Shown here in pieces: positions 10,501-35,135 of a stretch of 64,000 bases of DNA (its first letter is position 1; each line of letters opens with the position of its first letter). Under the pieces are notes generated by a model. That model made no database searches. It saw only the letters and a program-made list of their open reading frames with translations, and was not told the origin of the DNA. Position numbers and translations under genes: made by a program. The DNA is taken from assembly GCA_947460595.1 (NCBI GenBank), contig CANHGS010000003.1:114707-178706 (forward strand), in the 5' to 3' direction. This stretch comes from Bacteroidota bacterium. Lineage in GTDB: Bacteria; Bacteroidota; Bacteroidia; Chitinophagales; Chitinophagaceae.

Positions 10501-10865
10501 GTAGCATAGCCCACCACTACAACATCGTTCAGGTTATTAATCTTGGCTTTCAAGGCTGCATTTACGGTATTGCCTTCACCAACCATCAATTCCACCATTT
10601 CATGGTTAATAGAATTAATTACTAGGGTTTGGCCCGTCTGTGCGTCAATGCTAAACCTACCAGCATCGTCCGTTTTAGTGCCGTTAGGCTTGTTTTTAAT
10701 GGTTATAGAAACTTCTGGAACTGGGTTTCCAGCTTCATCTGTGACCGTACCACTGATTTTACGGTTTTGTGCCATCACTAGTGTTGGCATAACTGATAGT
10801 AAGAGAAATACTGCCATGATTCGCATCATGCTACAGGATTTCCCAATTTGGAGGGCTAATCGCAT
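7596..10865 (-). CDS. susC: SusC/RagA TonB-dependent transporter
   Basis: VVVVGYATQKK..MTGSV, SPLVVIDG, ILKDAASASIYG, NPDLQWETT, C-terminal GINVNF; start set at ATG 10865 rather than the TTG at 10934. Confidence 0.95.
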   Translation of the reverse strand: MRLALQIGKSCSMMRIMAVFLLLSVMPTLVMAQNRKISGTVTDEAGNPVPEVSITIKNKPNGTKTDDAGRFSIDAQTGQTLVINSINHEMVELMVGEGNTVNAALKAKINNLNDVVVVGYATQKKVNMTGSVATISAKQIENRPVTNLSSSLAGLSSGVYVRQGSGQPGSDGASILIRGTGTLSSNSPLVVIDGIIGSMDAVNPLDVETISILKDAASASIYGSLAANGVILITTKKGQRNKTTVTYNGIFSTTNPMNMPNYNSNYSRHMQMINEGTTNIGQPSIFAASTIRAWDSTSLIPDQLNAIGVPNRIAYPNTDWGDALFDNKVVQNHNISINGGSDKVNYLLSVGYLDNKGVMQNTGTKRYQIRANLDAKVAKWLTMGTQTFASTQTYDMGNTSSAFNFLGQTTPGVVPTYDGKYGFPHAQEESSTANAILAFLNNTAGSDRQSRFNTTLYAIVNLYKGLTFESRFNYQIRFGEYNSHSVPQERWNFATNEVKTFPGDPSTFSTYYSFDKVTQTTIDNVLRYTTKIGSNHEISALAGYNQMYYNSYNFNASKQGLIDYSITTLGSALLPTTTNGGESDYAMRSWFGRVNYAFKNKYLLEANMRYDGSSRFSPNTRWGLFPSVSAGWRIIDEKFMEGTKSWLSNLKIRGSWGKLGNNASGVYDWQSTYSTRLYSFNNVQSSGLAVGRIANPDLQWETTTTTNFGLDGSVLNNKLFFEFDLYQRLTNGILSTVPVPLTVGTASSPIVNAAEVKNSGYEITVGYRGKSGEFNYRVSGNYAYNTNQVTKYKGQLVEGYVTDATGAQVYQSNIGLVSAGGTNRILEGKKINEFRIYEVYKGSGTYNNADGTVNINGGPKDGMIRTPEDLAWAQAMITAGYKLLPSNAVRNNAIYYGDLIYADLNGDGQYGNSFDQKFTGTSTLPKYIFGFNVEMSWKSFDISMVWAGAAGFNYYWNDTYNNSSVRNGFALSNMVLDNHYFYNPLDAKDPRNNTNAKYTRLKSSDPQNTSVASDWWMHNASWIKLKNLQIGYNIPEKLAKKMLMSRARVYVSGENLLMITKYPGLDPEIGAGIGYPTMRQYALGINVNF

Positions 10866-10959
10866 AAACAATCGTTTTAGGTTGATTTGATTACTTAATC
10901 TACCCCTGCAAAAGCAAGGATAAATACTATTCAAAAATGAGCTAAGAAGTACAATAGGA

Positions 10960-20422: not shown

Positions 20423-22369
20423 ATGAAATACTTTCTTGGCTTTTGGGCCGCTTGTTTTTTATTGGTTAATACACAAGCACAACAAACGCAGAAACCACCA
20501 CTGCATGGTAAAAACTGGATGGCTATCACAGGTAAACCCCTTGCAGCCACGGCTGGCTCCCAGATTTTTCAACAAGGTGGTAATGCGGTAGACGCGGCTT
20601 GCGCCATGCTAGGTGCCACTTGCACCATGTGGGATGTATTAAGTTGGGGTGGAGAAACACAGGCCCTCATCTACAATCCTAAGACCAAGAAAGTCATTGC
20701 CATCAATGCCATGGGTGTAGCACCTACTGGCGCCACCGTGGAATTTTTTAAAAGCAAGGGATATGCATTTCCGCCAGAATATGGTCCACTAGCAGCCACC
20801 ACACCGGGCACTGTTGGCGGACTTTGTTATATGCTGAGTGAGTTTGGAACCATGAGTTTGAAACAAGTGTTGCAACCAGCCATGCAATTGGCGGCAGGTT
20901 ACCCCATTGACGCACAAACCGCCAATAGTATGGAGAAGGGCAAAGAGCTAATCAAGGGATGGCCCTATTCCAAAGCCGTATTCCTCACGCATTCTGGAGA
21001 AAAAAGAGAAGCACCCGAAGCAGGAGAAATTTTTATACAGAAAGATTTGCTAGCCACACTTAGCAAATTAGTAGAAGCAGAAACAGCCGCACTCAAAAAT
21101 AAAAAGAGCCGCAAAGAAGCCATCATGGCGGCTTATGACCGTTTTTACAAAGGCGATATTGCCAAGGAATTTGTGCGAGGCGCACAGGAACAAGGAGGAC
21201 TGATTACATTAGAAGACTTAGCCAAATGGAAGCCCCGTGTGGAAGAACCACTACACGTAAACTACAAAGGCATTGAAGTGTACAAACTATCGCAGTGGAC
21301 CCAAGGCCCCATGCTCCTACAAAGTTTGAACATGCTAGAAAATATAGACCTCAAATCTATGGGCTATAATAGCACACGCTATATTCATACGCTGTATCAG
21401 ACCATGAATATGACTTATGCAGACAGAGATTTTTATTATGGCGATCCCTATTTTCCACCAGCAGAACCCATGCAGGGATTGTTGAGCAAGGAATACGCCA
21501 GACATAGGGCCAGCCAAATTAATGCGGATAAGAACAATGCATTTGCCACACCAGGAGATCCTTATCCTTATGAAGGCAAGACCAATCCTTATTTGAGTTT
21601 GTTGCAAAAAAGAGCTGCACTAACCGATACCAGTTTGCAACAAGGAAACGCCATACCCAAACATGATCAAACTTATTTACAAATCAATAGCGGCGCTGAT
21701 TTGGCTAGGTTGTCAACTAACGCTTCTTTTCCCTTTGCTAGTGAAGAGGAAGCCTATCAAGACAGGTTATGGCGCGGCACTACAACGGTAGAAGCTGCTG
21801 ACACATCGGGCTGGGTGGTCTCTATTACCCCTAGCGGGGGATGGCTGCCAGCAACCATAGCCGGAAGAACAGGCCTAGGCATGAGCCAGCGGATGCAGAG
21901 CTTTGTGTTGGATAGCACTATTGATCCCTTTAATGTGGTGGAACCGGGCAAGCGTCCACGCGTAACGCTTACACCAAGTTTGGCATTAAGAGATGGTAAA
22001 CCCTTTTTGTGTTTTGGTGTGCAGGGTGGCGATACTCAGGATCAAAACCTGTTGCAATTTTTCTTGAACATAGTAGAGTTTGGCATGACGGTACAACAAG
22101 CATCCGAAGCGGCTAATTTTAATACCAACCAACTCTGGCTTTCACTGGGTGGTAGCAAACTCAAGGATCGCATACCCCGCGCCGGAAGTATTCTCTTACC
22201 TCGCAATGCTAGCGAAGAACTCAAAACCAGTTTGAAAAAAATGGGCTATCAAATAACCCTTGGTGACCGAACCAGCGGCCCCATCAACGCCATTTATTTT
22301 GACTGGAAACATGGCAGTCTTTGGGGTGGAAGTTCTAACAATGGAGAGGACTATGGGATTGGGTGGTAA
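20423..22369 (+). CDS. Gamma-glutamyltransferase family Ntn hydrolase
   Basis: GGNAVDAACA, TPGTVGG, FYKGDIA, GTTT nucleophile region, GKRPRVTLTP, GVQGGDTQ. Confidence 0.85.
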   Translation: MKYFLGFWAACFLLVNTQAQQTQKPPLHGKNWMAITGKPLAATAGSQIFQQGGNAVDAACAMLGATCTMWDVLSWGGETQALIYNPKTKKVIAINAMGVAPTGATVEFFKSKGYAFPPEYGPLAATTPGTVGGLCYMLSEFGTMSLKQVLQPAMQLAAGYPIDAQTANSMEKGKELIKGWPYSKAVFLTHSGEKREAPEAGEIFIQKDLLATLSKLVEAETAALKNKKSRKEAIMAAYDRFYKGDIAKEFVRGAQEQGGLITLEDLAKWKPRVEEPLHVNYKGIEVYKLSQWTQGPMLLQSLNMLENIDLKSMGYNSTRYIHTLYQTMNMTYADRDFYYGDPYFPPAEPMQGLLSKEYARHRASQINADKNNAFATPGDPYPYEGKTNPYLSLLQKRAALTDTSLQQGNAIPKHDQTYLQINSGADLARLSTNASFPFASEEEAYQDRLWRGTTTVEAADTSGWVVSITPSGGWLPATIAGRTGLGMSQRMQSFVLDSTIDPFNVVEPGKRPRVTLTPSLALRDGKPFLCFGVQGGDTQDQNLLQFFLNIVEFGMTVQQASEAANFNTNQLWLSLGGSKLKDRIPRAGSILLPRNASEELKTSLKKMGYQITLGDRTSGPINAIYFDWKHGSLWGGSSNNGEDYGIGW

Positions 22370-22375
22370 ATGAAA

Positions 22376-22450
22376 GTGAAGAGATAAGAGGGAAGAGGGA
22401 AGAGGGAAGAGATAAAAGTGAAGAGTGAAGAGTGAAGAGTGAAGAGTGAA
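22376..22450 (+). repeat. Purine-rich heptamer tandem repeat, about 11 units
   Basis: GTGAAGA GATAAGA GGGAAGA x3 GATAAAA GTGAAGA x4 GTGAA immediately after the ggt stop codon. Confidence 0.9.
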
Positions 22451-22475
22451 ATTCAAAAAAAATTACCCACTTTAA

Positions 22476-22892
22476 ATGTGGTTAACAAATATGAATCAGT
22501 TTAGTCAAATTGATACTAGATTAATAGCGCTAGCCAAACAAATTGGTGCTTCATTAGAAACAACCGTTGGTGGGCATTCTATTGATGGTATTGATGTACC
22601 AAAAGACAAACTAGCAATAAGACAAATTCAATGGATAGAAGGACCTATTGGAAAAGCAATCATCATTAATCAAAACTTTGAAAACGGCAATCTGGAAGCA
22701 CCTAACTGGGATTTTATAAATATTGCTTGGCTACTGGAAGGAAAAACCCCTGCAAAGGGAAGGCCGATATGGAATAAGTACCTATTAAAAAATATTGATT
22801 TTAGAAAAATTGAAACTGATATTGAAAAACTTTTAAAGCAGTCCTTGGAAAATTTAAATGCAGTCAAGAAAACTGATCTTAAGTATAGATAA
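22476..22892 (+). CDS. Hypothetical protein (start possibly ATG 22491)
   Basis: 138-aa ORF, AT-rich, no recognised motif. Confidence 0.6.
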   Translation: MWLTNMNQFSQIDTRLIALAKQIGASLETTVGGHSIDGIDVPKDKLAIRQIQWIEGPIGKAIIINQNFENGNLEAPNWDFINIAWLLEGKTPAKGRPIWNKYLLKNIDFRKIETDIEKLLKQSLENLNAVKKTDLKYR

Positions 22893-22949
22893 GTGTTTAC
22901 TGGTTCGTTAATCATTAGTTTTGCGCAGCATATGAGGCATACAAAAAAA

Positions 22950-23042
22950 GGCAGCATCCGCACTACCATGCACTACACCCATATAAGCATCAAAAGCCTG
23001 GGCAATATTCAAAGACCCCTAGACAGATTGAATTGGGAGTGA
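22950..23042 (+). pseudogene. C-terminal remnant of a tyrosine recombinase/integrase
   Basis: Reads GSIRTTMHYTHISIKSLGNIQRPLDRLNWE*, matching the box II tail (T-x-x-Y-T-H, then I-x-S/R-P-L-D) of Bacteroidota site-specific integrases; everything upstream of box II is missing. Confidence 0.7.
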
Positions 23043-23263
23043 CTATCAACCATACATCAACAATCTACCCCTCAACCATTCCAAACCTAGAAGTTTCCTA
23101 CCCGCCACCCAGCCCATCATACTCGCGTTTTCTTAATATCTCACTTTAATCTCCACACCTGCGCTTTTCCAATATCTCGCATCCCCTTGCAGATAGCCAT
23201 TAGTCTATCAATTCAAAGACACTCATAAATTTCTTATAGGGTTTATTTTTGATGTGATGGTTT

Positions 23264-23291
23264 TATGTACTTTTAAGCGTTGGTGGCTAGT
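23264..23291 (+). mobile_element. attI-like site / crossover at the start of cassette 1
   Basis: TATGTACTTTTAAGC-GTTGGTGGCTAGT; GTTGGTGGC (23279-87) is the reverse complement (8/9) of GCCACCAAA at 23886-94. Confidence 0.45.
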
Positions 23292-23313
23292 TTAACTCAG
23301 TCACAAATGTTTA

Positions 23314-23832
23314 ATGCATCTTTTAAAAATAAAACTTTGTCTTATGCAGCTTATAAAATTTCGGATAATATTCTTTTTGATAATTTTGTTATGTAGCTGT
23401 ACTACACTGAAACCAGTGACAAGCATAAAGAATGACACAATTCAGAAGTACAAATATTTTTATATTTCTCCTACTAACAGTTTGACTTCAAATTCAGGAG
23501 CTACAATAGGAAGTCAATTTTATTCTTCAAGTAAAAGCATAAACCCAAGTGATCTTATTACAGGTATATTATCAAAAAAGAGGTTTATAAAATTGCCTGA
23601 ACTCAAATCCGAACTATCAGAAGAAACAGTTGTTGTTAATTATGGTGAAAGTGGGAGAAGAAAAACAGGTCTCGGCGGATATACTATTGAGGTGACAATT
23701 CAAATTATTTCAGCTAAGTCAAATAAATTGATTTGTTCCTGTACTGCAGAGGGACAAGGTGAGACAGAAGCTGATGATATTAGACAAGCAATTAATCGGT
23801 GCTTAGCAGAATTATTACCAAATCAAAATTAG
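23314..23832 (+). CDS. Hypothetical lipoprotein (cassette 1 gene)
   Basis: Lipobox LLCSC; 172 aa, start possibly 23344. Confidence 0.75.
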   Translation: MHLLKIKLCLMQLIKFRIIFFLIILLCSCTTLKPVTSIKNDTIQKYKYFYISPTNSLTSNSGATIGSQFYSSSKSINPSDLITGILSKKRFIKLPELKSELSEETVVVNYGESGRRKTGLGGYTIEVTIQIISAKSNKLICSCTAEGQGETEADDIRQAINRCLAELLPNQN

Positions 23833-23885
23833 AAATTAATAAGTTCAAATAAATTGAAACAATAGTTTGGATACCCAAAGTACAA

Positions 23886-24036
23886 GCCACCAAAATTAGG
23901 CTTTGCACAATTTGTGCTTCCACTTTAGCCCTTCAACTTTTGTTATTTCTTATCAACTTCAGTAATTTGGCTTTAGCTAATCGGGGCATTAGAATCACAG
24001 ATTATCCAAACTGAGCAAAGCTCTGAACGTTAGCGG
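23886..24036 (+). mobile_element. Complete attC-like imperfect inverted repeat (151 bp)
   Basis: GCCACCAAA-ATTA-GGCTTTGCACAATTT ... AAACTGAGCAAAGCT-CTGAAC-GTTAGCGG; arms 23899-913 / 24008-022 are 12/15 complementary; inner TTTGTGCTTC / GAATCACAGA 8/10. Confidence 0.62.
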
Positions 24037-24108
24037 TCATGCTTACAGACGCTCTACAAACATGAGAAGATATTTGAAAAAGATTTCAATTTTTCGTAAA
24101 TTCACTTA

Positions 24109-24642
24109 GTGAAAAAGAACAAGCTAATTTATCTGGACTTTGAGGTCGACAAGCTCACCAATTCGATTGAAAATGTAATTTCAGGCGAAGTTTTTGATAC
24201 CTTGATTGTAAAACTAAGACCCGCAGACGGCAAAAGTATTAAGAAAGGAGAATGGGGTTTTAATTGGCACAATGAACTTAAAGACAAGACAAAGCAAGTT
24301 TATAAGTTGTCTACAGTTAATAACCCAACAATTATTCATGGACTTATTAGTTTGACAGACAAAGGTGACCATATTTTTATGGATTTGATAGAAAGTGCAA
24401 AATTCAACAAAGGTAAAAACAAACTTTATAGAGGTGTTGCTGGAAATCTTGTTGCTTTTGGTTGTAAAATGTCATTTGAATCAAATTATGACGGGGTAGT
24501 TTCTTTTGTAGCCAAGACCCAACTTGTTGCTCATTATGAACAAACTTTGGGAGCAAAATTTTTTGGTGGTAATCGTATGTTCATTGACACTAAAGAAGCA
24601 TTTATTTTAACAACAAAATATTTTAAAGACAATAAACTATGA
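24109..24642 (+). CDS. Hypothetical protein with GNAT-like features (cassette 2)
   Basis: GTG start, 177 aa; DHIFMDLIESA, YRGVAGNLVAFGCKMS, LVAHYEQTLGA. Confidence 0.7.
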   Translation: MKKNKLIYLDFEVDKLTNSIENVISGEVFDTLIVKLRPADGKSIKKGEWGFNWHNELKDKTKQVYKLSTVNNPTIIHGLISLTDKGDHIFMDLIESAKFNKGKNKLYRGVAGNLVAFGCKMSFESNYDGVVSFVAKTQLVAHYEQTLGAKFFGGNRMFIDTKEAFILTTKYFKDNKL

Positions 24643-24803
24643 TAAACTTCAAAAAAATGGACGACAAAGACTTTGTGTTTGTAAACAAGCCTTTAAGCGC
24701 CAAAGAAGAAAAAGAATTTAGTGATTTTCTAAAGTCACGCAAGAGGAAAACAAGGCGTATAGGACTACCGAAAAAAATTAAGAAAGAAAAATTGGTTATT
24801 TAA
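24639..24803 (+). CDS. Small 54-aa basic protein, not in the ORF track
   Basis: ATGA overlap with upstream stop; MINFKKMDDKDFVFVNKPLSAKEEKEFSDFLKSRKRKTRRIGLPKKIKKEKLVI*. Confidence 0.6.
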   Translation: MINFKKMDDKDFVFVNKPLSAKEEKEFSDFLKSRKRKTRRIGLPKKIKKEKLVI

Positions 24804-24861
24804 TTGGGAGTCAGAAGCTAGGTTGAAAAACCGAAAAGGAACAAACTTCAAAGCAAAAAGT

Positions 24862-24882
24862 CCTCCCCTAACATAAGGCTTT
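24862..24882 (+). mobile_element. Truncated attC-like left half-site
   Basis: CCTCCCCTAACATAAGGCTTT; 15-mer CTAACATAAGGCTTT identical to 25409-25423. Confidence 0.5.
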
Positions 24883-24912
24883 TCCGTAATTAAAAATAAC
24901 AACCATCAACTT

Positions 24913-25392
24913 ATGAAACCTTTGACTTTATTATTAGCCATTTTGGGATTTTCATTTTATTCAAATGGACAGACAAGTTTTAAAAGAAACGACATTTATT
25001 TAGAAGCTGGCGGTAATGGGCTTTTTTCGTCCATTAATTATGAGAGACAATTGACAAAACAACCTGGGCTTGGGTTTAGACTTGGTATTGGATTTTACGC
25101 TGAAAAAGCATTTTACTTGACAATACCAGTTGGAATCAACTATCTTTTCAAATTAAAAAATAACAAATCTTTTATTGATGCAGGACTTGGAGCAACTTGG
25201 ACTAGAATTGACGGAAACTTATTCGGAGACTCAAAAAATTCTACCGGTGACCATTTTGTAAACTTCGCTCCAAGTATTGGTTACAGAAGACACACAACTA
25301 AAGATGTAATGTGGCGTATTAGTATTACACCTATTGCTAACAAATATGGTTTAGTTCCTTGGTTGGGGTTTTCAATTGGAAAAAGATTTTAA
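24913..25392 (+). CDS. Small outer-membrane beta-barrel-like protein (cassette 3)
   Basis: Signal peptide, alternating beta-strand pattern (IYLEAGGNG, INYERQL), C-terminal Phe. Confidence 0.7.
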   Translation: MKPLTLLLAILGFSFYSNGQTSFKRNDIYLEAGGNGLFSSINYERQLTKQPGLGFRLGIGFYAEKAFYLTIPVGINYLFKLKNNKSFIDAGLGATWTRIDGNLFGDSKNSTGDHFVNFAPSIGYRRHTTKDVMWRISITPIANKYGLVPWLGFSIGKRF

Positions 25393-25402
25393 TAAATAAT
25401 AA

Positions 25403-25433
25403 CCTCGGCTAACATAAGGCTTTGTGCAAATTT
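25403..25433 (+). mobile_element. Truncated attC-like left half-site
   Basis: CCTCGGCTAACATAAGGCTTTGTGCAAATTT, similar to the left arm at 23886-23913. Confidence 0.5.
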
Positions 25434-25519
25434 TAAAATTTTAAATTAAAAAACTGCTTGAATGCGAGGGGCGTTTTGAGATTACCATAAATACAATAGC
25501 CAAAGACTAAAAGAAAAAT

Positions 25520-26104
25520 ATGAAAATGGGAATAATCTTACTTATAGTAGTCCTTATAGCATTCACAGTTGTCCAACTTTATTTTATACTTGGACAAAGA
25601 AATATTGAAACATACCCCTATGTTGTTAAAAGAAAATATAAGCTATTTGAAATAAGGACTTATGCAACTACTTTATTTACCTCAGTCAAACTCTCTACAA
25701 AAGGATATAAAAATTCTTCCAGTAAAGGTTTCTCTATTCTAGCGGGATATATTTTTGGAAATAATGAAAGGAATGAAAAAATAGCTATGACTTCTCCGGT
25801 CTCCATGTCATTAGGTGATTCCACAACCATGATGTTTATGGTTCCTAAGAAATTTAATAAAGACATGCTTCCTAAGCCTAATCAATCAGGTATAGAATTT
25901 AAGGAAGAGGCTTCAAAAACCGTTGCTGCAATCAGGTTTGACGGTTGGGCTAGTGATACTAAAATAGAGAAATATCAACAGCAATTAAAAGCAGCTTTAG
26001 ATGCAGCAGGTATAAAGTATTCTAATCAATTTTATTTTTGGGGCTATAATGCTCCTTTTGAAGTTTTTAATCGAAAAAATGAAGTGATAGTTGAATTGCA
26101 ATAA
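25520..26104 (+). CDS. SOUL heme-binding family protein
   Basis: IETYPYVV, FEIRTY, GFSILAGYIFGNN, KIAMTSPV, MMFMVP, GYNAPF, RKNEV. Confidence 0.88.
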   Translation: MKMGIILLIVVLIAFTVVQLYFILGQRNIETYPYVVKRKYKLFEIRTYATTLFTSVKLSTKGYKNSSSKGFSILAGYIFGNNERNEKIAMTSPVSMSLGDSTTMMFMVPKKFNKDMLPKPNQSGIEFKEEASKTVAAIRFDGWASDTKIEKYQQQLKAALDAAGIKYSNQFYFWGYNAPFEVFNRKNEVIVELQ

Positions 26105-26161
26105 AATACTCTTACAATATATAACTAGGAGTTAATCGTATTACTTATAATTTAAGAGATA

Positions 26162-27487
26162 ATGAAAAGAAGAAGCTTTATTAAAAACGCATCCCTAACG
26201 GCTTTGGGCATAAGCGCCTTTGGCATCATGGACTCCTATAGTAAAAGTTCTGTCTTTGGCAATAATCTCAAAGTGAATGGCAAACGTATTGAAAACCGCA
26301 TTTTTGAATTGGCAAAATTTGGTCTAGATGAAAAGGGTCATGGCACCCGAGTGGCCTATACAAAAGCGGATATGGAAGGCCGTGCCTGGTTTATTGAGCT
26401 CATGAAAAAAGCAGGGCTTAACCCAAGCATTGATACAGCTGGTAATATCATCGGCAAACGCAAAGGAAAAAACAATTCACTCAAACCCATTGGTTTTGGT
26501 TCACATATTGACATGGTGCCAGATGGTGGAAATTATGATGGCACGTTGGGTTCTATAGGTGCATTGGAAGTAATTGAAATATTAAATGAAAACAATGTGG
26601 TTACCGAACATCCTCTGGAACTGATCATTTTTAGCAATGAAGAAGGGGGTACCATTGGCAGTAAAGCCATGGTGGGCGATATAACAAGCGAAGGATTGCT
26701 ACAGAAAAGTCAAATGGGCTTAACCATGGCTGAAGGTATTAAAGCCATTGGTGGCAATCCCGAGCATATTCAAGCCTGCATTAGAAAAAAAGGCGATATA
26801 CACGCATGGGTGGAATTGCATATAGAGCAAGGCGGTGTATTAGAAAAGGAAAACATCCAGATTGGTGTAGTAGAAGGTATTGTTGGAATTGTACATTGGG
26901 AAGTAACGGTAGAAGGTTTTGCCAATCATGCAGGTGCTACACAAATGAACATGCGGCAGGACGCTTTGCTGGCTGCCTCTAAATTTATTATTGCCGTTAA
27001 TGAAGTGATCACTAGTGTAAAAGGAACACAGGTTGGAACGGTTGGAAAAATTGCAGTGCAGCCCGGCGCATATAATGTGATTCCAGGTAAAGCAATCTTA
27101 GGTTTAGAAATCCGCGATTTATCAGCTGATAAAATTGAAATGCTATTTAAGCAAATTGAAAATCGCGCAGCAACCATTGCCAAAGAGTATAAAACTAAAA
27201 TTAGTTTTATACGGCAAGCCAATGAATCAAAACCTGCATTAACGGATAAAAAGTTACAGCAAACCATTAATGCTAATGCCAAAATATTGGGCTTTACCAC
27301 CAAGTTAATGCAAAGTGGAGCCGGCCACGATTCGCAGCATATTGCAGCAATTGCACCGTCTTCTATGATTTTTATTCCGAGTGTGGGCGGCATCAGTCAT
27401 TCACCCAAAGAATTTTCAAAGGCATTAGATATGGAGAATGGAGCCAATCTGTTATTACAAACAATACTGTCCATTGACAGAACTTAA
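26162..27487 (+). CDS. M20 Zn-dependent amidohydrolase (N-carbamoyl-amino acid / allantoate amidohydrolase family), Tat-like signal
   Basis: MKRRSFIK; GSHIDMVPDGGNYDG, NEEG, ELHIEQG, SGAGHDSQ, GGISHSPKE. Confidence 0.88.
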   Translation: MKRRSFIKNASLTALGISAFGIMDSYSKSSVFGNNLKVNGKRIENRIFELAKFGLDEKGHGTRVAYTKADMEGRAWFIELMKKAGLNPSIDTAGNIIGKRKGKNNSLKPIGFGSHIDMVPDGGNYDGTLGSIGALEVIEILNENNVVTEHPLELIIFSNEEGGTIGSKAMVGDITSEGLLQKSQMGLTMAEGIKAIGGNPEHIQACIRKKGDIHAWVELHIEQGGVLEKENIQIGVVEGIVGIVHWEVTVEGFANHAGATQMNMRQDALLAASKFIIAVNEVITSVKGTQVGTVGKIAVQPGAYNVIPGKAILGLEIRDLSADKIEMLFKQIENRAATIAKEYKTKISFIRQANESKPALTDKKLQQTINANAKILGFTTKLMQSGAGHDSQHIAAIAPSSMIFIPSVGGISHSPKEFSKALDMENGANLLLQTILSIDRT

Positions 27488-27788
27488 GGCAAGGATTTAA
27501 ATTAGCCTACGTACTTTAAAAAGTTGGCTACCACCCCAGAGGAGAAGACTTTTTAATGAAAGTGTAGTATAACAAATTGTTTTGTCTACAATTTAAACGC
27601 TTGCAAGATATCTAATACAAACACTAGGGTTCATCTTAGAGCAAATGCTAAGAATGATTTGATTTATAATTAAAAAATAAATATTAAACGGGAAGTTTCT
27701 TTTTTTGTGGAGAAGACTGCCGATTTTACCACCAAAGCAGAAGCTGAAAAAAAGGAAAATTTGCCTAAGATGCCACTTTCTTAATGTT

Positions 27789-27947
27789 GACAAATGGAGA
27801 TTTGTTCGTTGTTTTGGATTAGAACTTTCATCCAACATAAAAGTTGGATTTAGAATACAAGCAAGATTAGGGGAAAAATGTGAAGGTAAGTTTGATTTTA
27901 TAAACTTGACTAATGACAGTGGTAAAATCTTTAGAGATAGTAGTTAA
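27789..27947 (+). pseudogene. Possible C-terminal fragment of a DUF1349-like gene
   Basis: DKWRFVRCF...KVGFRIQARLGEKCEGKFD...FRDSS* recalls the DUF1349 tail; no matching N-terminus. Confidence 0.3.
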
Positions 27948-28125
27948 TACATTGCAATAACTAAACTTGGTAACGATAAATATTAATCATTAATTTTACT
28001 CCAATTGCCAAGAATGAACTAGCAACAATTCTCAGCCTTAGCAAGCACTCCAGCGTATCTGAAAAGCAAAGATAGGAGCAAGAAAAACTGATAAATAAAA
28101 AATATACTGAATTAAATAAATAGTC

Positions 28126-29529
28126 ATGGGTATGAGGTTCCAAATTACTTTTCTTTTGCTTTTAACATTTAACATTTTTGCAAATGCGCAGCAGAAGAAA
28201 CCAAATATTGTTTTCATTCTTACTGATAATCTCGGTTACGGTGAAATTGGTTGCTACGGTGGTGGAGCTACGCGTGGTGCGCCAACACCCCGCATTGATA
28301 AACTGGCAACGGAAGGTATTCGTTTAACGAATATGAATATGGAAACACAATGCACACCAAGTCGCTCAAGTTTATTGACTGGCCGTTTTGCCATACGTTC
28401 CGGCACTTATGCTGTTCCTTTTGGTGGCGTACCAGATGGATTGACGCAATGGGAAATCACTATTGGTGAAGCTTTGTCAGATGCAGGTTATGCAACAGGA
28501 TATTATGGTAAGTGGCATCTCGGTAGTCACAACGGGAGACTGCCTAATGACCAAGGTTTTGATGAGTGGTATGGAATACCACGAACTACTGATGAGGCGC
28601 TTTGGTCAACATCTGTAGGATACTCTCCAGATATAGTTCCCTTAGAAAAAATAATGGAAGGCAAAAAAGGAGAAAAAAGTAGGGAACTTAAAGAATATAC
28701 CGTAGAACAGCGTAGACTAATAGATGCTGAAATTACGCAGCGTTCTGTTTCATTTATTGAAAAGCAATCTAAATTAGGCAAGCCATTCTTTACCTATATT
28801 TCTCTTACGCAACCCCATCTTCCAACTATTCCTAACCCTTCTTTTAGTGGCAAAACAGGCAATGGCGACTGGGCTGACATGCTTACTGAAATGGATTATA
28901 ATGTTGGTAGAATCATAGATGCTATTGATAAAGCTGGTGTAACTGAAAATACCATTATCGTTTTCACAAGCGATAACGGACCTGAATACTTCAAGCCATG
29001 GGATGGCTGGGCAGGACCATGGCGTGGACAATATTTCACCGCATTAGAAGGTGGTATTCGGGTGCCCTTTATAATGCGTTGGCCAGCGAAAATAAAATCT
29101 AATGTTGTAAGTAATGAAATTGTTCATGGTGTAGATATGTTTGCAACACTTGCTTCTTTTGGAGCTGCAAAAATTCCGGTTGATCGTCCTTTTGACAGTA
29201 AAGACCAATCTAATTTCTTTTTAGGCAAGAATGTAACATCAAACAGGGAAGGCTTCCCAATATGGTGCAGTAATACCCTAATGGCAGTAAAATGGAAAAA
29301 TTGGAAAATGCATTTTTATAGACAGAATGATATGTTTGACCCTCCTGTTAAAAATCCTATCCCAGTAGTATTTAACTTATTTACAGATCCTCGTGAAGAG
29401 AAACCAACTATTGATTCATGGGTTGTACATCCTATTTTAAAAATGGTAGGAGAGTTTAATCAAAGTCTTGTCAAATTCCCAATAATACCAATGGGAACAC
29501 CTGATCCCTATATTCCACCTAAACAATAA
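28126..29529 (+). CDS. Formylglycine-dependent (S1) sulfatase / arylsulfatase
   Basis: KKPNIVFILTDNLGYG, CTPSRSSLLTG (CxPxR), YYGKWHLG, SDNGP, EGGIRVP. Confidence 0.92.
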   Translation: MGMRFQITFLLLLTFNIFANAQQKKPNIVFILTDNLGYGEIGCYGGGATRGAPTPRIDKLATEGIRLTNMNMETQCTPSRSSLLTGRFAIRSGTYAVPFGGVPDGLTQWEITIGEALSDAGYATGYYGKWHLGSHNGRLPNDQGFDEWYGIPRTTDEALWSTSVGYSPDIVPLEKIMEGKKGEKSRELKEYTVEQRRLIDAEITQRSVSFIEKQSKLGKPFFTYISLTQPHLPTIPNPSFSGKTGNGDWADMLTEMDYNVGRIIDAIDKAGVTENTIIVFTSDNGPEYFKPWDGWAGPWRGQYFTALEGGIRVPFIMRWPAKIKSNVVSNEIVHGVDMFATLASFGAAKIPVDRPFDSKDQSNFFLGKNVTSNREGFPIWCSNTLMAVKWKNWKMHFYRQNDMFDPPVKNPIPVVFNLFTDPREEKPTIDSWVVHPILKMVGEFNQSLVKFPIIPMGTPDPYIPPKQ

Positions 29530-29535
29530 TGAAGC

Positions 29536-29575
29536 ATGTTCAATGAAGCTTTGAGACATTAACTTCATTGAACAT
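29536..29575. terminator. Hairpin between convergent sulfatase and GH20 genes
   Basis: Perfect 13-bp stem ATGTTCAATGAAG / CTTCATTGAACAT. Confidence 0.55.
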
Positions 29576-29622
29576 TAGCAATATTTAAGTTCAGGGAATT
29601 TCTATTTGTACAAGATTTATTT

Positions 29623-32241
29623 TTAGTTTTCTACACTAAATGTTTTACTGCCTCTACCAAGTTTATTGAATGCCCTTAGTTTTACCTTGCCTTCAACTTT
29701 CACAGGCGCTGTATATTCGGTAGAATTTATGGTAGGTTCAGTACCGTCTTTGGTATAGCGGATGATTAATCCGGGAAAAGCTACGTTTGCTTTCAATAAG
29801 CCATTTTCAATGACTGCACCCGGTGGTGCGATACGGTAATTATAAGTTCCAAATAGAAAATCTAACCGTGAGAATTCCCGCTGTCCTATTTGGTTGGAAA
29901 GATCTGACCAACCTGTCCAGATTGCTTTCACTCGTTTTGAAATATTGGCCTCGCTTTCCCAATCCGGCGCTTTGGCCCAGGCTTTTTCTGCAAAAGCAAA
30001 GAGTTTTGGCGTGAGGTAATACTCCAACATAGCAGGCCCTTTAACAGTCTCACTCCATAACTGTGCTTGTATGCCTACAATGTTTTTTTGTGCTTCAACA
30101 TTCAAGTGTTGTTTTACTATACCGGCATCAATTTTTTGAGATTTACGACCAAAAATTGCTTCTTTTTCAGTTAGACGTCCATACTTATCTAAATTGGTAG
30201 ATTTATACACATCCAACGGAGTCATTACATAGGGGTCTAATGCATCTTGGTAACCCGCCCAAACCAAACCGGGCTCATTAGGGTCGGTGTTGTAAGCCAG
30301 ATCAAAATAAAGATTGGTGGCATTGCATAATACAACCTTGTAACCCATATTGGCAATACGGTAACCGAGGTCAATATTCAAACCGGTGTTATCCCAAACC
30401 AAGGGTAAAACATTTTTATTTTTAAACTTTGTATTTACGGTAGAATTATTAGCAACGTCTTTATTCAGAACTATTTCTTCCCAGCCGGCAACCTGCAAGT
30501 CATATTTTTCAAATATGGCAAGTGCTTTTTCAAGGAAATATCCTTGTAACTGACGGGGATTCTCAATTTCGGGATGCGTTTTCATCAGATTGATACAGAG
30601 AGGCGATTTTGCCCAAGCGCCTTTTGGAACTTCGTCGCCGCCAGTGTTAAATATGGTTAGTTTTAAACCAGCCTCCTGATACATGGCCATCATATCCTTC
30701 ACTACCGTTTCATAGAAATGATACACAGAAGGCCGTGCTACACAAACAATATTGTCTTTATACAATTGAGCAGACAAGTAAACTGACTGATCATTGGGAT
30801 CAATTAAACGAAATTCATTAGCTTTTGCGGTATCTCCCTTTGACATAAAACGATCATATCGTGCTTCCATAGCTTTAATAGCTGCACGAGCATGACCGGG
30901 CATTGAAATTTCAGGAATTACCATGATATGTCTTTGATCAGCATATTTAATAATCTCTTTAAATTCATCACGCGTATAGAATCCCTTTCCGTAATTATTT
31001 TCAGAATCAGGGTTTGGTCCTGAACCATAAGATGGTGTAAGCCAATTTTTAGAGTTATTTGTATGTCCACGTTTACTACCAATTTGGGTCAATTCAGGTA
31101 ACCCGTTTATTTCTATGCGCCAACCTTCGTCTTCAGAAAGATGGAGGTTAAGTTTGTTTATCTTATACATAGAAAGAAGATCGATGACCTTAAGTACGTC
31201 TTCCTTTTTGGTGAAATTTCTTGAAACATCGAGCAAGAAACTACGATAGCCAAATCTTGGTGAATCAAGAACCTCTAAACTTTCAACTAGTATCTGATCT
31301 TGTTTTTTTGCTGGCATCAATGCTAAAAGGCTTTGAATACCGTAAAAAACACCAGCGGGGTCGTTGCCTGAGATTACAACTCCGTTTCCTTCCTTAACAT
31401 TTAGAGAATAGGCTTCTTCAGAAACAGCATTTACAGTTATAGCGGATGTTTTCAGGGTAATGCTATTAGGTTCTTTACCGCTTCCTTCTTTCATTAGCAA
31501 TTTGGAACCTAGTATTTTTTCAACATAAGCTACCAGATAATCTGCCTCTTTTTTAAGGCCATTGCTATAATAAACAACAGTGGATTTATCCAAAGTCACA
31601 CCACCTTTCCCTGGTAGTATTGAATAAGGACTTGGGATAATTTTACCAATAGATTCGCTTGGAAGCACTGGTATATTTTGGTTGATTAGGTATTGGTTGG
31701 ACGCTGTTGGAATAGTAGCTATAAAATCAGCATCAGAAAACATCTTTTGATGATCAGTGAAAGGCGTCTTGATTAGTTCTTTGCTAATGATTGCTTCATT
31801 CTCACCTACAACAAGATAGGCGCCTTGTGGAGCGTATTTTTCATTAAAAAGAATACCCGCAGCTTCAAAATCATACACTAGTGAGTCACCTGGGTTAAGC
31901 GTAAAACTACTATTGGGCACAAAGCGGTACAAATCACCGTTTATATGCTCCAATATTCCTTTTGACAAATCATTTGAAGCGTTTGGTTTCAAAAAACCTT
32001 GGTTAAAATACAACGCCCATTTTCCTGTTCTAATGGTATCTGAGCCATTATTAACAAAAGTAAAGGCAGCTTTGAAAGACCCCGCTTCAGTTTCGGGATT
32101 TTTTAATAATTCCCATTTTACTTTTAGGTTTTCAAATACATTTGTAGTAGCTACTTTTGAAGTGCTGCAGCTAAAAAAAGCGGAAATGCAATTAAAGGCT
32201 AATAATATTAATGCAATTTTTTTGAACTCCTTTATTCTCAT
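29623..32241 (-). CDS. GH20 beta-N-acetylhexosaminidase (chitobiase-type) lipoprotein
   Basis: Lipobox FFSC; DSPRFGYRSFLLDVSRNF, HLSEDEGWRIEI, PEISMPGH, GGDEV; start at ATG 32241. Confidence 0.92.
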   Translation of the reverse strand: MRIKEFKKIALILLAFNCISAFFSCSTSKVATTNVFENLKVKWELLKNPETEAGSFKAAFTFVNNGSDTIRTGKWALYFNQGFLKPNASNDLSKGILEHINGDLYRFVPNSSFTLNPGDSLVYDFEAAGILFNEKYAPQGAYLVVGENEAIISKELIKTPFTDHQKMFSDADFIATIPTASNQYLINQNIPVLPSESIGKIIPSPYSILPGKGGVTLDKSTVVYYSNGLKKEADYLVAYVEKILGSKLLMKEGSGKEPNSITLKTSAITVNAVSEEAYSLNVKEGNGVVISGNDPAGVFYGIQSLLALMPAKKQDQILVESLEVLDSPRFGYRSFLLDVSRNFTKKEDVLKVIDLLSMYKINKLNLHLSEDEGWRIEINGLPELTQIGSKRGHTNNSKNWLTPSYGSGPNPDSENNYGKGFYTRDEFKEIIKYADQRHIMVIPEISMPGHARAAIKAMEARYDRFMSKGDTAKANEFRLIDPNDQSVYLSAQLYKDNIVCVARPSVYHFYETVVKDMMAMYQEAGLKLTIFNTGGDEVPKGAWAKSPLCINLMKTHPEIENPRQLQGYFLEKALAIFEKYDLQVAGWEEIVLNKDVANNSTVNTKFKNKNVLPLVWDNTGLNIDLGYRIANMGYKVVLCNATNLYFDLAYNTDPNEPGLVWAGYQDALDPYVMTPLDVYKSTNLDKYGRLTEKEAIFGRKSQKIDAGIVKQHLNVEAQKNIVGIQAQLWSETVKGPAMLEYYLTPKLFAFAEKAWAKAPDWESEANISKRVKAIWTGWSDLSNQIGQREFSRLDFLFGTYNYRIAPPGAVIENGLLKANVAFPGLIIRYTKDGTEPTINSTEYTAPVKVEGKVKLRAFNKLGRGSKTFSVEN

Positions 32242-32340
32242 TTGTTGGCAATTTAATAATTCAATAAGCAATAAATAATATGCTTTATAAAGTTAATATT
32301 TTATAACCATATATAAATTGAAATAGACAGATTATTTACT

Positions 32341-33687
32341 ATGAAAGAAAGAACTATTATCAAAAATATTAGCATCGTAAATGAGGGGCAAATAATTGTT
32401 ACCAACCTATTAATTGAAGATGGCATTATTCGTAAAATTGGCGAACTCGATGAAGTCAATGTCACAGATACAATAGACGGAACAGGTAAGTATTTATTCC
32501 CAGGTATTATTGATGGTCAAGTTCATTTTCGTGAACCTGGGCTAACACATAAAGGAGATATTTATACAGAAAGTAAAGCAGCGATTGCAGGTGGGGTAAC
32601 TTCATTTATAGACATGCCAAATACATTTCCGAATGTATTAACCATTGATATTTTAAATGAAAAATATCAAATTGCATCTGAAAAATCATTAGCCAATTTT
32701 GGTTTCTTTTTAGGTGTTAATGGCGACAACCTTGATGAAGTTATTAAACTAGATACATCCAAGCTTTTGGGTGTTTCAGATGATGGACTTTATTTTACAA
32801 AAAAAGGTAACCTTCTAGCAGACAATCCTGAAACAATGGAAAAGCTATTTGCGAATTGCAAATCCATTATTGCCATACATTCTGAAAAAGAACAGATTGT
32901 TGAAGAGAATGAACAAGCATACAAAGAAAAATATGGTGAACATGTACCTGTTGAATGTCACCCAATCATTAGAAGCGAAAGGGCTTGTTATGAAGCTACC
33001 AAAAGAGCCATTGAAATAGCTAACAAACACAAAGCCAGACTTCATATTTTACATTTGACCACAGAAGCAGAAACACATCTGTTTCGTAATGACATTCCTT
33101 TAGAAGAGAAAAACATTACAACTGAAGTGTCTGTTCATCACTTGTGGTTTTCTGACAAAGACTATGAACGTCTAGGAACATTAATAAAATGGAATCCGGC
33201 TATCAAAACTGAAAACGATAAAAAAGGACTTTTAAAAGCCTTGTTAGATGATAGAATTGATATTGTTACTACAGACCATGCGCCTCATACATTAGATGAA
33301 AAACAAAAACCTTATTTTCAATCAATGTCAGGCGCTCCCATTATTCAGCATTCGTTGAACATTATGCTTGAGTTTTACAAACAGGGTCTTATCTCTTTAG
33401 AGAAAATAGCAGAAAAGATGTGTCATAATCCAGCGATACTTTACAGTATTGAAAAAAGAGGTTTTATTCGGGAAGGATACTTTGCAGACCTCACGATTGT
33501 TGACTTAAATTTAAGTTGGACAGTTAGTAAAGAAAATATTTTATCTAAATGTGCCTGGTCACCATTAGAAGGCACCCTCTTTCAAACAAAACTGACACAT
33601 ACATTTGTAAATGGCAACTTAGTTTACAACAATGGACAATTTAATGAAAGCTTAAAAGGAAAAGCTTTAATGAAATCAAAACAATAG
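32341..33687 (+). CDS. pyrC: Dihydroorotase-like cyclic amidohydrolase
   Basis: IIDGQVHFREPG, GGVTSFIDMPNT, KWNPAIK, TDHAPH, KCAWSPLEG. Confidence 0.78.
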   Translation: MKERTIIKNISIVNEGQIIVTNLLIEDGIIRKIGELDEVNVTDTIDGTGKYLFPGIIDGQVHFREPGLTHKGDIYTESKAAIAGGVTSFIDMPNTFPNVLTIDILNEKYQIASEKSLANFGFFLGVNGDNLDEVIKLDTSKLLGVSDDGLYFTKKGNLLADNPETMEKLFANCKSIIAIHSEKEQIVEENEQAYKEKYGEHVPVECHPIIRSERACYEATKRAIEIANKHKARLHILHLTTEAETHLFRNDIPLEEKNITTEVSVHHLWFSDKDYERLGTLIKWNPAIKTENDKKGLLKALLDDRIDIVTTDHAPHTLDEKQKPYFQSMSGAPIIQHSLNIMLEFYKQGLISLEKIAEKMCHNPAILYSIEKRGFIREGYFADLTIVDLNLSWTVSKENILSKCAWSPLEGTLFQTKLTHTFVNGNLVYNNGQFNESLKGKALMKSKQ

Positions 33688-33701
33688 TTGAACTAATATC
33701 T

Positions 33702-34532
33702 ATGTTTAAAAATAGGAGATTGCTTATAGCTACAAAGCACAAAAAAGAGCTTGTGATTGCACCAATACTTGAAAGAGAATTAGGGGTTATTTGCTTTGTG
33801 GATGAAATTTTTGATACCGATACATTGGGAACATTTACTGGCGAAATAGAAAGAGAATATGACCCAATATCAACGGCAAGAGAAAAGTGTTTACGAGCAA
33901 TGAAAGCTAATAACTGTGATTTGGGAATTGCAAGTGAGGGGTCATTTGGATCACATCCATCTTTGATTTTTGTAAATGCAGATGATGAATTTTTGATTTT
34001 TATTGACTCTTTGAATAAAATTGAAGTAATAGTTAGAGAATTAAGTGCTTCAACTAATTTTAACGGCAAACAAGTCCAAAGCCAAGAAGAACTTTTTGAG
34101 TTTGCTAAGCAAATTGGGTTTCCTTCTCACGGATTAATTCTTCGCAATTCAAAAGACTCAAATGCAGCTATTCATAAAGGGATAACGGATATAGAAGTTT
34201 TAAAAAAAACATTTGAGCATTTCAACACTAATTCTGTTTATGCTGAAACAGATATGAGAGCCCTTTATAATCCAACACGCATGAATGTGATTGAGAAGGC
34301 TGCACAAAAATTGGTAGAAAAAATTAAATCAACTTGCCCACAATGTCAAATGCCAGGTTTTGGAGTAACAGATATTAAAGAAGGTCTTATTTGCAGCTTG
34401 TGTGGATGGCCAACAAATTCAACAGTTAGCTTTATTTATATTTGTCAACATTGCCAATTCAGTAAAGAAGAAATGTATCCTCATAATAAAACAACAGAAG
34501 ACCCTACTTATTGTAACTATTGTAATCCCTAG
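33702..34532 (+). CDS. DUF6671-like protein with C-terminal CxxC clusters
   Basis: ATKHKKE, DTDTLGTFTGEIER, ASEGSFG, ETDMRALYNPTRM, four CxxC pairs. Confidence 0.7.
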   Translation: MFKNRRLLIATKHKKELVIAPILERELGVICFVDEIFDTDTLGTFTGEIEREYDPISTAREKCLRAMKANNCDLGIASEGSFGSHPSLIFVNADDEFLIFIDSLNKIEVIVRELSASTNFNGKQVQSQEELFEFAKQIGFPSHGLILRNSKDSNAAIHKGITDIEVLKKTFEHFNTNSVYAETDMRALYNPTRMNVIEKAAQKLVEKIKSTCPQCQMPGFGVTDIKEGLICSLCGWPTNSTVSFIYICQHCQFSKEEMYPHNKTTEDPTYCNYCNP

Positions 34533-34577
34533 ATATAAAAATTAATTCTACTACCTTGCATAAAATTTGGTAGATAA

Positions 34578-35135
34578 ATGAAAAGGAACCATCATCTGAT
34601 TAAAGCATTTGTTTTTTATACAGTTCTGGCCATCATCCATCTAAGTTGTGACACTCCAAGAACAGAAAAAGAAACGGTTACAAAAGCCAGTCCGGAAATC
34701 TATCAATGTATTCCCTGTGGCTATGACTGTGACAAGCAGGTTTATGACAAAGCTGGTCAATGCCCCAGTTGCCATATGGAATTGGTCAAACAAAGTTCCA
34801 TCATTTTTAAAACCATTCAGCCCTCTGAGATTTGTGCTTATATCAAAAGCCATCCCAATGTAGTTTTGTTAGATGTTAGAACAAAAGAGGAATTTGAAGG
34901 CAAAGCAGAACCCAATTTTGGTAGCCTTAAAAATGCCATCAACCTGCCTATACAAGAATTTGATACAAAATTAAGCAGCATTGATTCTTTGAAAAACAAA
35001 GAAATCATTGTCTTTTGTTCCCATAGTCACCGAAGTCCTAGGGCCAGTCATTTGCTTACCCAAAATGGCTTTACCAATGTAACAAATATGGCTGGGGGTA
35101 TGAGTGTATTAAAGGATAACAGTTGCAAAAAATAA
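34578..35135 (+). CDS. Heavy-metal-binding domain plus rhodanese lipoprotein
   Basis: Lipobox HLSC; YQCIPC...CPSCHMELV; LLDVRT..EF, active-site CSHSHRS. Confidence 0.8.
   Translation: MKRNHHLIKAFVFYTVLAIIHLSCDTPRTEKETVTKASPEIYQCIPCGYDCDKQVYDKAGQCPSCHMELVKQSSIIFKTIQPSEICAYIKSHPNVVLLDVRTKEEFEGKAEPNFGSLKNAINLPIQEFDTKLSSIDSLKNKEIIVFCSHSHRSPRASHLLTQNGFTNVTNMAGGMSVLKDNSCKK

Follow-up and report, generated by a model that had tools for sequence, protein, structure and literature searches.

We analysed a 64,000-nucleotide stretch of a Chitinophagaceae genome (Bacteroidota bacterium, assembly GCA_947460595.1, contig CANHGS010000003.1, positions 114,707 to 178,706), hereafter called the window. The segment between positions 22936 and 25480, perhaps extending to 26104, is best read as a dead copy of an integron-like gene-cassette platform, a reading to which we give a probability of about 0.88. 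Integrons are the model system of bacterial gene capture. The observations behind this reading are the anatomy of the segment, its homology with a platform in a related genome, a rule of complementarity at the cassette boundaries, covariation within the stems of the sites, the linkage between sites and recombinase genes, and the lack of synteny. The segment lies in a block of low G+C content (22400-26150; 30-35% vs 42-50% in the flanks), which is bounded by the gamma-glutamyltranspeptidase (GGT) gene at 20423-22369 and the M20 amidase gene at 26162-27487, and in which all open reading frames (ORFs) and elements are on the + strand. A preliminary description of this DNA had pointed out the tail of a tyrosine recombinase, a non-coding stretch, a crossover point G/TT (the slash marks the crossover here and below) and three co-oriented AT-rich units, and all of these were found where it had placed them.

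The most informative comparison was with G130, a genome of the same genus. Its region L037 carries a recombinase gene, an attI region of about 190 bp and then co-oriented small genes, each followed by a site of 165-200 bp, in an array of 28 kb. The remnant of a recombinase gene in the window is homologous to the G130 gene (L037:6487-7221), whose protein ends ..IRTTMRYTHVSIKSLGNIQSPLDRLKWK; by alignment this homology begins at about 22936. The attI region of G130 is homologous to window 23043-23278 and holds two direct repeats and the core GTACTTTTAAGC/GTTGGTGGC. When window 22860-23330 was aligned with G130, mean column identity was 76%, with long identical runs. The view of the preliminary description, that the locus is the relic of a Bacteroidota cassette-capture system, is thus borne out by the homologous recombinase gene, attI region and array of G130.

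Each G130 cassette starts with GTTnnnnnn, and its own site begins with the exact reverse complement nnnnnnAAC. The start and the site start are GTTGGTGGC and GCCACCAAC for cassette 1, GTTGCACGT and ACGTGCAAC for cassette 2, GTTGGGCGTC and GAACGCCCAAC for cassette 3, and GTTAGCGGTC and GAACCGCTAAC for cassette 4, and the complementarity goes on farther along the array. Such complementarity between start and site around G/TT is the defining footprint of integron cassettes, and the rule is accordingly taken as the footprint of circular-cassette insertion with crossover between G and TT. In the window, the attI-like region ends ..AAGC/GTTGGTGGC and the first site starts GCCACCAAA, the reverse complement of the cassette 1 start GTTGGTGGC save for one C>A change; the same site ends GAAC/GTTAGCGGTC. 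Identity of this first site is about 76% with the G130 sites and 80% with G000:C2:59946-60135, which is a further full copy within the genome of the window (G000; nhmmer E 8e-62). Matches to it were found in 36 of the 301 genomes of the family, several of them in one region of G130. The G130 recombinase gene is itself truncated at its N-terminus (L037 6487-7221), leaving a frame of 246 amino acids (aa) with no N-terminal domain and a partial core-binding domain. It is the sole copy in that genome, though the array boundaries stay perfectly complementary; its inactivation was probably recent.

The recombinase remnant of the window amounts to about 35 codons, namely a short piece (..KKGSI) followed by the last 27 codons, RTTMHYTHISIKSLGNIQRPLDRLNWE, with the stop at 23040-23042; the translation of 22950-23042 is GSIRTTMHYTHISIKSLGNIQRPLDRLNWE followed by that stop. 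The catalytic Tyr and the SPLD-type tail are retained, and the rest of the recombinase is gone. Compared with the G130 gene, the remnant has lost an internal stretch after 22959, one that lies between two AGCATCC repeats in the G130-type sequence. The window's own genome contains no homologue of the recombinase in a six-frame search, and no IntI above the cut-off. Integron attC sites follow the order R''(RYYYAAC)-spacer-L''...L'-spacer-R'(GTTRRRY). Site 1 of the window has this order, with R'' GCCACCAAA (AAC mutated to AAA), L arms GGCTTTGCACAATTTG and CAAACTGAGCAAAGC, and R' G/TTAGCGGTC; sites 2 and 3 are truncated. At 25403-25480 the left arm reads GGCTAAC ATAAG GCTTTGTGCAAATT and the right end AACTGCTTGAATGCGAGGGGC/GTTTTGAG, and the two arms are not complementary. 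The type C right end, including GGGGC/GTT, matches G130 and G000:C2. Since this site carries arms of two site types, it is read as the product of a deletion between two neighbouring sites. Its left piece and the piece at 24862 are identical at 19 of 21 bases. The preliminary description had counted one full site and two left halves; the full site and the half at 24862 stand, and the element at 25403-25480 is a chimera, not merely a left half.

The same organization was observed outside the genus. A core common to twelve recombinase loci of different genera, GCGTAyWTTTAAry/GTT, was found in the 330 nt downstream of the genes; it lies 90-240 nt after the recombinase stop in about ten genera, and the arrays begin at this core. 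As in integrons, attI lies beside the integrase gene, the crossover is G/TT, and the first cassette starts at the core. In the window's genome the core pattern was matched three times, against 0.33 in shuffles. GCGTTTT-type repeats stand at the equivalent place in other genera, and the two direct repeats of the window would be, by analogy with DR1/DR2 of attI1, candidate accessory sites for recombinase binding. In G233 (L046 2116-2300), the attI-side region has about six tandem copies of a unit of about 20 nt (GCAATTTGGCAACGYGAATT) instead of two direct repeats; these may, on the same analogy, be an expanded set of accessory binding sites. Intact integrases beside arrays, which the preliminary description had proposed to look for, are present in G099, G101, G190, G204, G231 and G117, all of other genera, and the boundary rule holds in these genomes. 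G099 has an intact gene for 379 aa, attI ..TTTTAGA/GTTAGCGGT, and then five or six rule-abiding cassettes, one of them a ParD/ParE-like pair. In G101 the first site starts GCTGGCAAC, which matches attI GTTGCCAGC.

Linkage between sites and recombinases was measured by a structural scan (AAC, 4 nt, 12-nt arm, interval, complementary arm with at least 10 of 12 matches, 5-8 nt, GTT). In 333 kb downstream of 18 recombinase loci, 58 sites were detected on the recombinase strand, or 3.5 per 20 kb, and 16 on the opposite strand. The level for the whole genome of the window was 0.17 per 20 kb, indicating about 20-fold enrichment downstream of recombinases; a looser version of the scan gave 0-3 per 20 kb on shuffled sequence. 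The length of sites is 130-200 nt, mostly 190-200 with some of 130-165. A bottom-strand alignment of 19 non-redundant sites, drawn from ten genomes, gave an RNAalifold consensus with an AAC/GTT R box, a spacer without pairing and a stem of 15 bp. In this consensus 11 of the 19 predicted pairs had changed on both sides with pairing kept, and two G.U wobbles were conserved. Folding of 62 scan sites with DNA parameters gave a mean of -25.0 kcal/mol for the bottom strand vs -23.2 for the top, the bottom strand being the better in 45 sites and the top in 16, and top-strand A.C mismatches (G.T wobbles on the bottom strand) numbered 82 vs 22 top-strand G.T. The spacer is uneven: one side usually measures 4 nt, its counterpart 6-8 nt. 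Classical bulged extrahelical bases were not identified in the L box of the sites. The direction of the strand asymmetry fits a substrate that, like attC, is a folded bottom strand.

The locus is variable between related genomes. Synteny with G130, at 88% identity, breaks off at window 22383, shortly beyond the GGT stop codon, and does not return until 34594. The 12.2 kb after GGT (22384-34593) are specific to this genome relative to G130, which has an unrelated 6.2 kb there, so the relic sits within a larger variable region. In G130 and in G241 the conserved GGT gene is followed by quite other genes, and the window array and the M20 gene are absent from both. As in integrons, then, cassette content varies between related genomes (window, G130 and G241). 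The preliminary description had named beforehand two results that would speak against it, namely sites unlinked to recombinases and a fixed gene order; we found instead a 20-fold linkage and non-syntenic loci in G130 and G241.

A six-frame search of the 301 genomes with the G130 protein (E ≤ 1e-40) yielded homologues in 126 of them (79 of 151 genera), as open frames of 370-440 aa and in 1-7 copies where present. Many of these genes are found some 1 kb short of a contig end that truncates the array side, as expected if repeated sites break assemblies. Among 17 full-length relatives aligned, R241, KGKKDR, H330, R333, H356 and Y365 are invariant, giving the catalytic set of tyrosine recombinases, and the S-P of the SPLDxL tail is invariant in all. 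Against VchIntIA (2a3v), residues 117-291 align with 11-185 and residues 310-383 with 247-320, leaving 18 residues in place of the 61 that form the IntI-specific I2 insertion; the same holds for all 17 aligned members, and the G130 homologue has about 55 residues between KGKKDR and HMLRHS. The G101 protein (385 aa) scored 218.7 bits on NF040815 (XerA / 'integron integrase'; cut-off 220), 202.3 on TIGR02224 (XerC; cut-off 335), 193.7 on TIGR02225 (cut-off 329.6), 189.1 on TIGR02249 with the match split in two (cut-off 265), and 132 on PRK15417 (cut-off 435); the G130 fragment scored 144.5 bits on TIGR02249. Judged by its sequence, which has no IntI insertion and stays below the TIGR02249 cut-off, the recombinase family is not IntI. 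Nor does it behave as a Xer dimer resolvase: it stays below the equivalog cut-offs, is absent from 175 of the 301 genomes and reaches seven copies elsewhere. The nearest folds are XerA (5hxy) and archaeal Xer (4a8e), then IntI4. An extra N-terminal domain of about 85 residues (L044 955-1209 and relatives) has the order beta-beta-alpha-beta-beta-alpha-beta-alpha and was modelled with a predicted local distance difference test (pLDDT) score of 93. A fold search with this domain gave no significant match in the PDB; the best, a lead only, was the fork-binding HARP domain of SMARCAL1 (E 0.15, template-modelling score 0.44-0.54). Classical IntI above the TIGR02249 cut-off was found in two of the 301 genomes, G086 (397 bits) and G251 (287 bits), too few for the arrays to be explained by a classical integrase working in trans. 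The two genes are L177 (G086:C202:116-1048) and L178 (G251:C24:31071-31796), the latter with a stop codon; the family thus hosts both kinds of integrase.

These features suggest a recombinase that would move cassettes by acting on a folded bottom strand. In its working form, the platform would have a tyrosine recombinase of 370-400 aa upstream of the array on the same strand, with an extra N-terminal domain, a SAM-like core-binding domain, a Xer-like catalytic domain and an IntI-like SPLDxL tail, and with no IntI insertion. This enzyme would join a circular cassette to the platform by exchange between G and TT of the attI core (GCGTAyWTTTAAry/GTT) and the G/TT of the folded site of the cassette. 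The resulting cassette would start with GTTnnnnnn and carry a terminal hairpin site of 130-200 nt beginning nnnnnnAAC, and the folded site would consist of an R box, an unpaired spacer, an L stem of about 15 bp and a long variable loop, with the bottom strand folding better. In the window, decay has involved loss of the N-terminal part of the recombinase, the deletion between the AGCATCC repeats and the shortening of two of the three sites. With no other copy of this recombinase in the genome and two sites cut down, the three or four cassette genes are now frozen as ordinary chromosomal genes. The upstream, co-oriented integrase of the preliminary description is also the arrangement in G130 and other genera. 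What failed was its novelty: co-oriented intI is already known from 'inverted integrase' integrons (PMC4889954), and the real departure is the missing IntI insertion.

The insertion of IntI is regarded as enabling the recombination of folded attC. According to Messier & Roy (2001), as cited in PMC4889954, the I2 insertion around patch III is needed for attC recombination, and Escudero et al. (PMC4792948) describe the additional domain of IntI as specific to the single-strand pathway. On balance we favour, with reservations, the wider proposal of a second, insertion-less class of integrons, in which a Bacteroidota-wide recombinase would capture folded single-stranded attC-like hairpins at G/TT without I2. 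The choice of strand would then be set by the uneven spacer and by the asymmetry of wobbles and mismatches, not by bulged bases, and the N-terminal domain might aid the recognition of structured DNA.

Several points weigh against reading the window as a dead platform of this kind. The platform is known from sequences alone, with no circular cassette or rearrangement on record, and both copies in the genus, those of the window and G130, have damaged recombinase genes. The R'' of window cassette 2 matches the cassette start only partly (CCNCTAAC). The sites used for strand preference and covariation are related copies, and the nominal p-values (1e-5 and 3e-9) overstate their independence. The folding energy of single sites is no better than that of shuffles (z -0.2 to -0.4); energy alone is therefore not evidence, and support comes from the comparison with other genomes. 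The scan had been tuned on these sites, and beyond the family it detects little in the DNA downstream of more remote homologues: in other Bacteroidota families and other phyla the level is near background, save for linked pairs in the Winogradskyella locus L112 and in L120, a metagenome-assembled genome of unclassified Bacteroidota. No phylum-wide claim is therefore made from these data.

Three other explanations were weighed. Ordinary intergenic repeats (of repetitive extragenic palindromic or miniature inverted-repeat element type, or terminators) might by chance follow small genes, the recombinase fragment coming from an unrelated mobile element. The poor folding of single sites just mentioned, the presence of only two full copies in the genome and the lack of an Rfam match all suit such repeats, which would nevertheless leave unexplained the exact reverse complements of start and site over many consecutive cassettes in several genera, the conserved attI core, the 20-fold strand-specific enrichment and the compensatory changes in the stem; we consider this origin very improbable. 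Equally hard to credit is a relic of a classical integron with a true, I2-containing IntI, whose likeness to the I2-less family would be secondary. The surviving tail (TTMxYTH...RPLD) does resemble the IntI C-terminus, 30 codons alone cannot reveal an insertion, and true IntI genes exist in the family (G086 and G251). Yet the tail and the 236-bp attI region of the window are homologous to those of the I2-less G130 gene, with its short interval between KGKKDR and HMLRHS and its 144.5 bits against a cut-off of 265; the insertion is absent from all 17 full-length relatives, and true IntI is confined to the two genomes.

Improbable, too, is a Xer-type reaction on double-stranded sites, like that of the dif modules of Acinetobacter plasmids, in which the hairpins would be incidental. 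Profile scores put the recombinase no farther from XerA/XerC than from IntI (NF040815 218.7, TIGR02224 202.3 and TIGR02249 189.1 bits), it does not have the IntI domain that holds extrahelical bases, and IntI itself retains an ancestral double-strand activity (PMC4792948). Against a duplex substrate, the stem is kept as a structure through changes on both sides, and the two conserved G.T wobbles and the excess of A.C favour one strand, which a pure duplex site would not select. Moreover, each cassette carries at one end a single site, an imperfect palindrome of 130-200 nt, and not a flanking pair of 28-bp dif-like sites; the crossover is at G/TT and the R' half is swapped between neighbours, as in attC. 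We therefore retain the dead integron-like platform as the explanation of the window.

Among known systems, the closest are the sedentary chromosomal 'inverted integrase' integrons of Treponema, Chlorobium and others. Shared with these are the recombinase gene, attI and an array of promoter-less, AT-rich small genes, mostly of unknown function; RYYYAAC...GTTRRRY imperfect palindromes with a G/TT crossover, R' inherited from the neighbour and a better-folding bottom strand; site families within an array (cf. the Vibrio cholerae repeats, VCRs, of Vibrio) and toxin-antitoxin cassettes (here in the C2 relic described below); and the breakage of draft assemblies by arrays and the existence of decayed, integrase-less arrays like those known as CALIN, in which attC sites cluster with no integron integrase. 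Unlike in integrons, the recombinase has no IntI insertion, stays under the TIGR02249 cut-off and bears the extra domain of about 85 residues with unmatched fold; the sites are long, their asymmetry comes from the uneven spacer and from wobbles and mismatches, and the classical bulged L-box bases were not seen; and the host phylum has almost no integrons in IntegronFinder surveys (PMC9024848). XerA, XerC and XerD resemble this recombinase in the size of the catalytic domain and in catalytic residues, the best matches being archaeal XerA (5hxy and 4a8e). Unlike a Xer gene, this one is not single-copy and conserved, adjoins attI and a cassette array, and has the SPLDxL tail and the extra N-terminal domain; the window's genome has separate Xer-like genes. 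The window copy resembles a CALIN, in the IntegronFinder definition, in being a short run of sites that has no functional integrase close by and is read as a degraded integron. The window differs in that it keeps an integrase remnant and attI, that two of its three sites are truncated, and that the parent system was not a classical integron.

IntegronFinder 2.0 reported for Bacteroidetes only In0 elements and one Salinibacter integron (PMC9024848), and reviews name Bacteroidota among integron-bearing phyla without detail. In the searchable full-text literature we found no account of arrays run by an insertion-less recombinase in Bacteroidota. In one family of this phylum, about 40% of genomes carry the insertion-less recombinase, heading arrays that keep the site layout and the boundary rule of integron cassettes. 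If the proposed class is real, cassettes could recombine without the IntI insertion, soil and water Bacteroidota would harbour a far larger reservoir of mobile cassettes than censuses suggest, and detection tools would need a second integrase profile and longer site models. Such a class would also explain the near-absence of integrons in surveys of the phylum. The fossil in the window shows how a platform dies: through loss of the recombinase, deletions within and between sites and dispersal of fragments, it is turned into ordinary-looking small genes.

Table 1. Elements of the integron-like relic and its neighbourhood in the window
Feature	Position	Strand	Remarks
Recombinase gene remnant	22936..23042	+	From window sequence, ORF list and alignment to the G130 gene
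attI-like platform region, non-coding	23043..23278 (236 bp)	+	Long identical runs with G130 L037:7222-7410
Two direct repeats, CTCGCGTTTTCTTAATATCTC and CTGCGCTTTTCCAATATCTC	23118..23178	+	Both copies kept in G130
attI core and crossover, GTACTTTTAAGC/GTTGGTGGC	23267..23287	+	G at 23279, TT at 23280-81
Cassette 1	23280..24029	+	ORF 23314-23832 and attC-like site
Complete attC-like site 1, type A, about 150 bp	23886..24038	+	Imperfect palindrome
Cassette 2, two genes and partial site	24030..24886	+	ORF 24109-24642 (177 aa) and overlapping ORF 24639-24803 (54 aa)
Left half of attC-like site (CCTCCCCTAAC ATAAG GCTTTTCCG)	24862..24886 (25 bp)	+	Remainder deleted up to next ORF
Cassette 3 gene, 159 aa	24913..25392	+	Signal peptide; weak outer-membrane beta-barrel signal
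Chimeric, deleted site	25403..25480 (78 bp)	+	Type A left arm and type C right end
SOUL haem-binding family gene	25520..26104	+	PF04832 E 3.9e-46; within low-G+C block

Among the cassette genes of the window (Table 1), the pair in cassette 2 has the widest distribution. A pair of 177 and 52 aa in other Bacteroidota contigs (for instance, a 26.7-kb metagenome contig) ends in GAACCGCTAAC, the complement of the window cassette 2 start GTTAGCGGTC. For the 177-aa protein, 2812 relatives were counted at E ≤ 1e-5, many of them 80-92% identical and mostly on contigs of about 1 kb; a 54%-identical copy adjoins a type A site in G228, and the gene pair recurs in other arrays. To judge from this distribution, the 177-aa and 54-aa pair behaves as a very widespread mobile two-gene cassette. 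Its identity as a known toxin-antitoxin or defence pair found no support in Pfam, NCBIfam or PADLOC. The ORF of cassette 1 encodes a predicted lipoprotein of 172 aa with an LLCSC signal, the probable true start being at 23344, and has weak Pfam matches only; the cassette 3 protein matched PF13505 at E 0.012, below the cut-off. Searches with the six proteins of the island against Pfam, NCBIfam and PADLOC recognised the SOUL protein alone and otherwise gave weak Pfam hints. Cassette proteins without family matches are typical of integrons. No site was found in the window after the SOUL gene, which may be a last cassette minus its site or flanking island DNA. An Rfam scan of 22300-26200 at E ≤ 1 gave a single chance match to a small nucleolar RNA, and Rfam appears to have no attC family.

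The genome carries traces of the platform at two other places. A second relic, beside tRNA-Leu(gag) at G000:C2:59300-67900 (L006 9300-17900), has no recombinase gene. Its attI core has a mutated crossover, GCGTACTTTTAAGT/GTAAGTGGC (GT-A-AGTGGC), and the site of its first cassette starts GCCACTAAC. Intact sites lie at L006 9955-10121 (type A) and 10725-10921 (type C), together with decayed half-sites and small genes of toxin-antitoxin type (DUF433-like, RelE-like, helix-turn-helix plus PIN, nucleotidyltransferase and Fic). In this relic six gene units in a row are each followed by the short motif (A)AC-ATCGC-GCCAGC (L006 10950, 11313, 12490, 12896, 13786 and 14820). These motifs were rejected as complete mini-sites, having no GTT partner and no boundary rule; they look like surviving left halves of sites, and left halves persist in the window too. 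The other trace is at the nifU locus. In G130 the integron and its recombinase gene together span 28 kb, with nifU on one side and a conserved flank on the other; only 377 bp separate the two flanks in the window's genome (G000:C11:12511-12888), where the 28-kb array is absent. The 377-bp interval keeps a 23-nt remnant of the attI-region direct repeat, GCGTTTTTCTAATATCTCATTT, a sign that a platform once stood here as well. Since a copy of the direct-repeat motif is kept at both places, a move of the platform from nifU to GGT is not supported.

Two further elements were observed upstream of the relic. At 22476-22892, directly upstream of the remnant and where the N-terminus of the recombinase would be expected, lies a low-G+C ORF of 138 aa with no family match in any library scanned; a displaced cassette and an inserted gene are both conceivable origins. 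The GGT stop is followed immediately, at 22370-22450, by some 11 7-mers in tandem (GAAGAGG, GAAGAGT or GAAGAGA), which coincide exactly with the end of the synteny with G130 at 22383.

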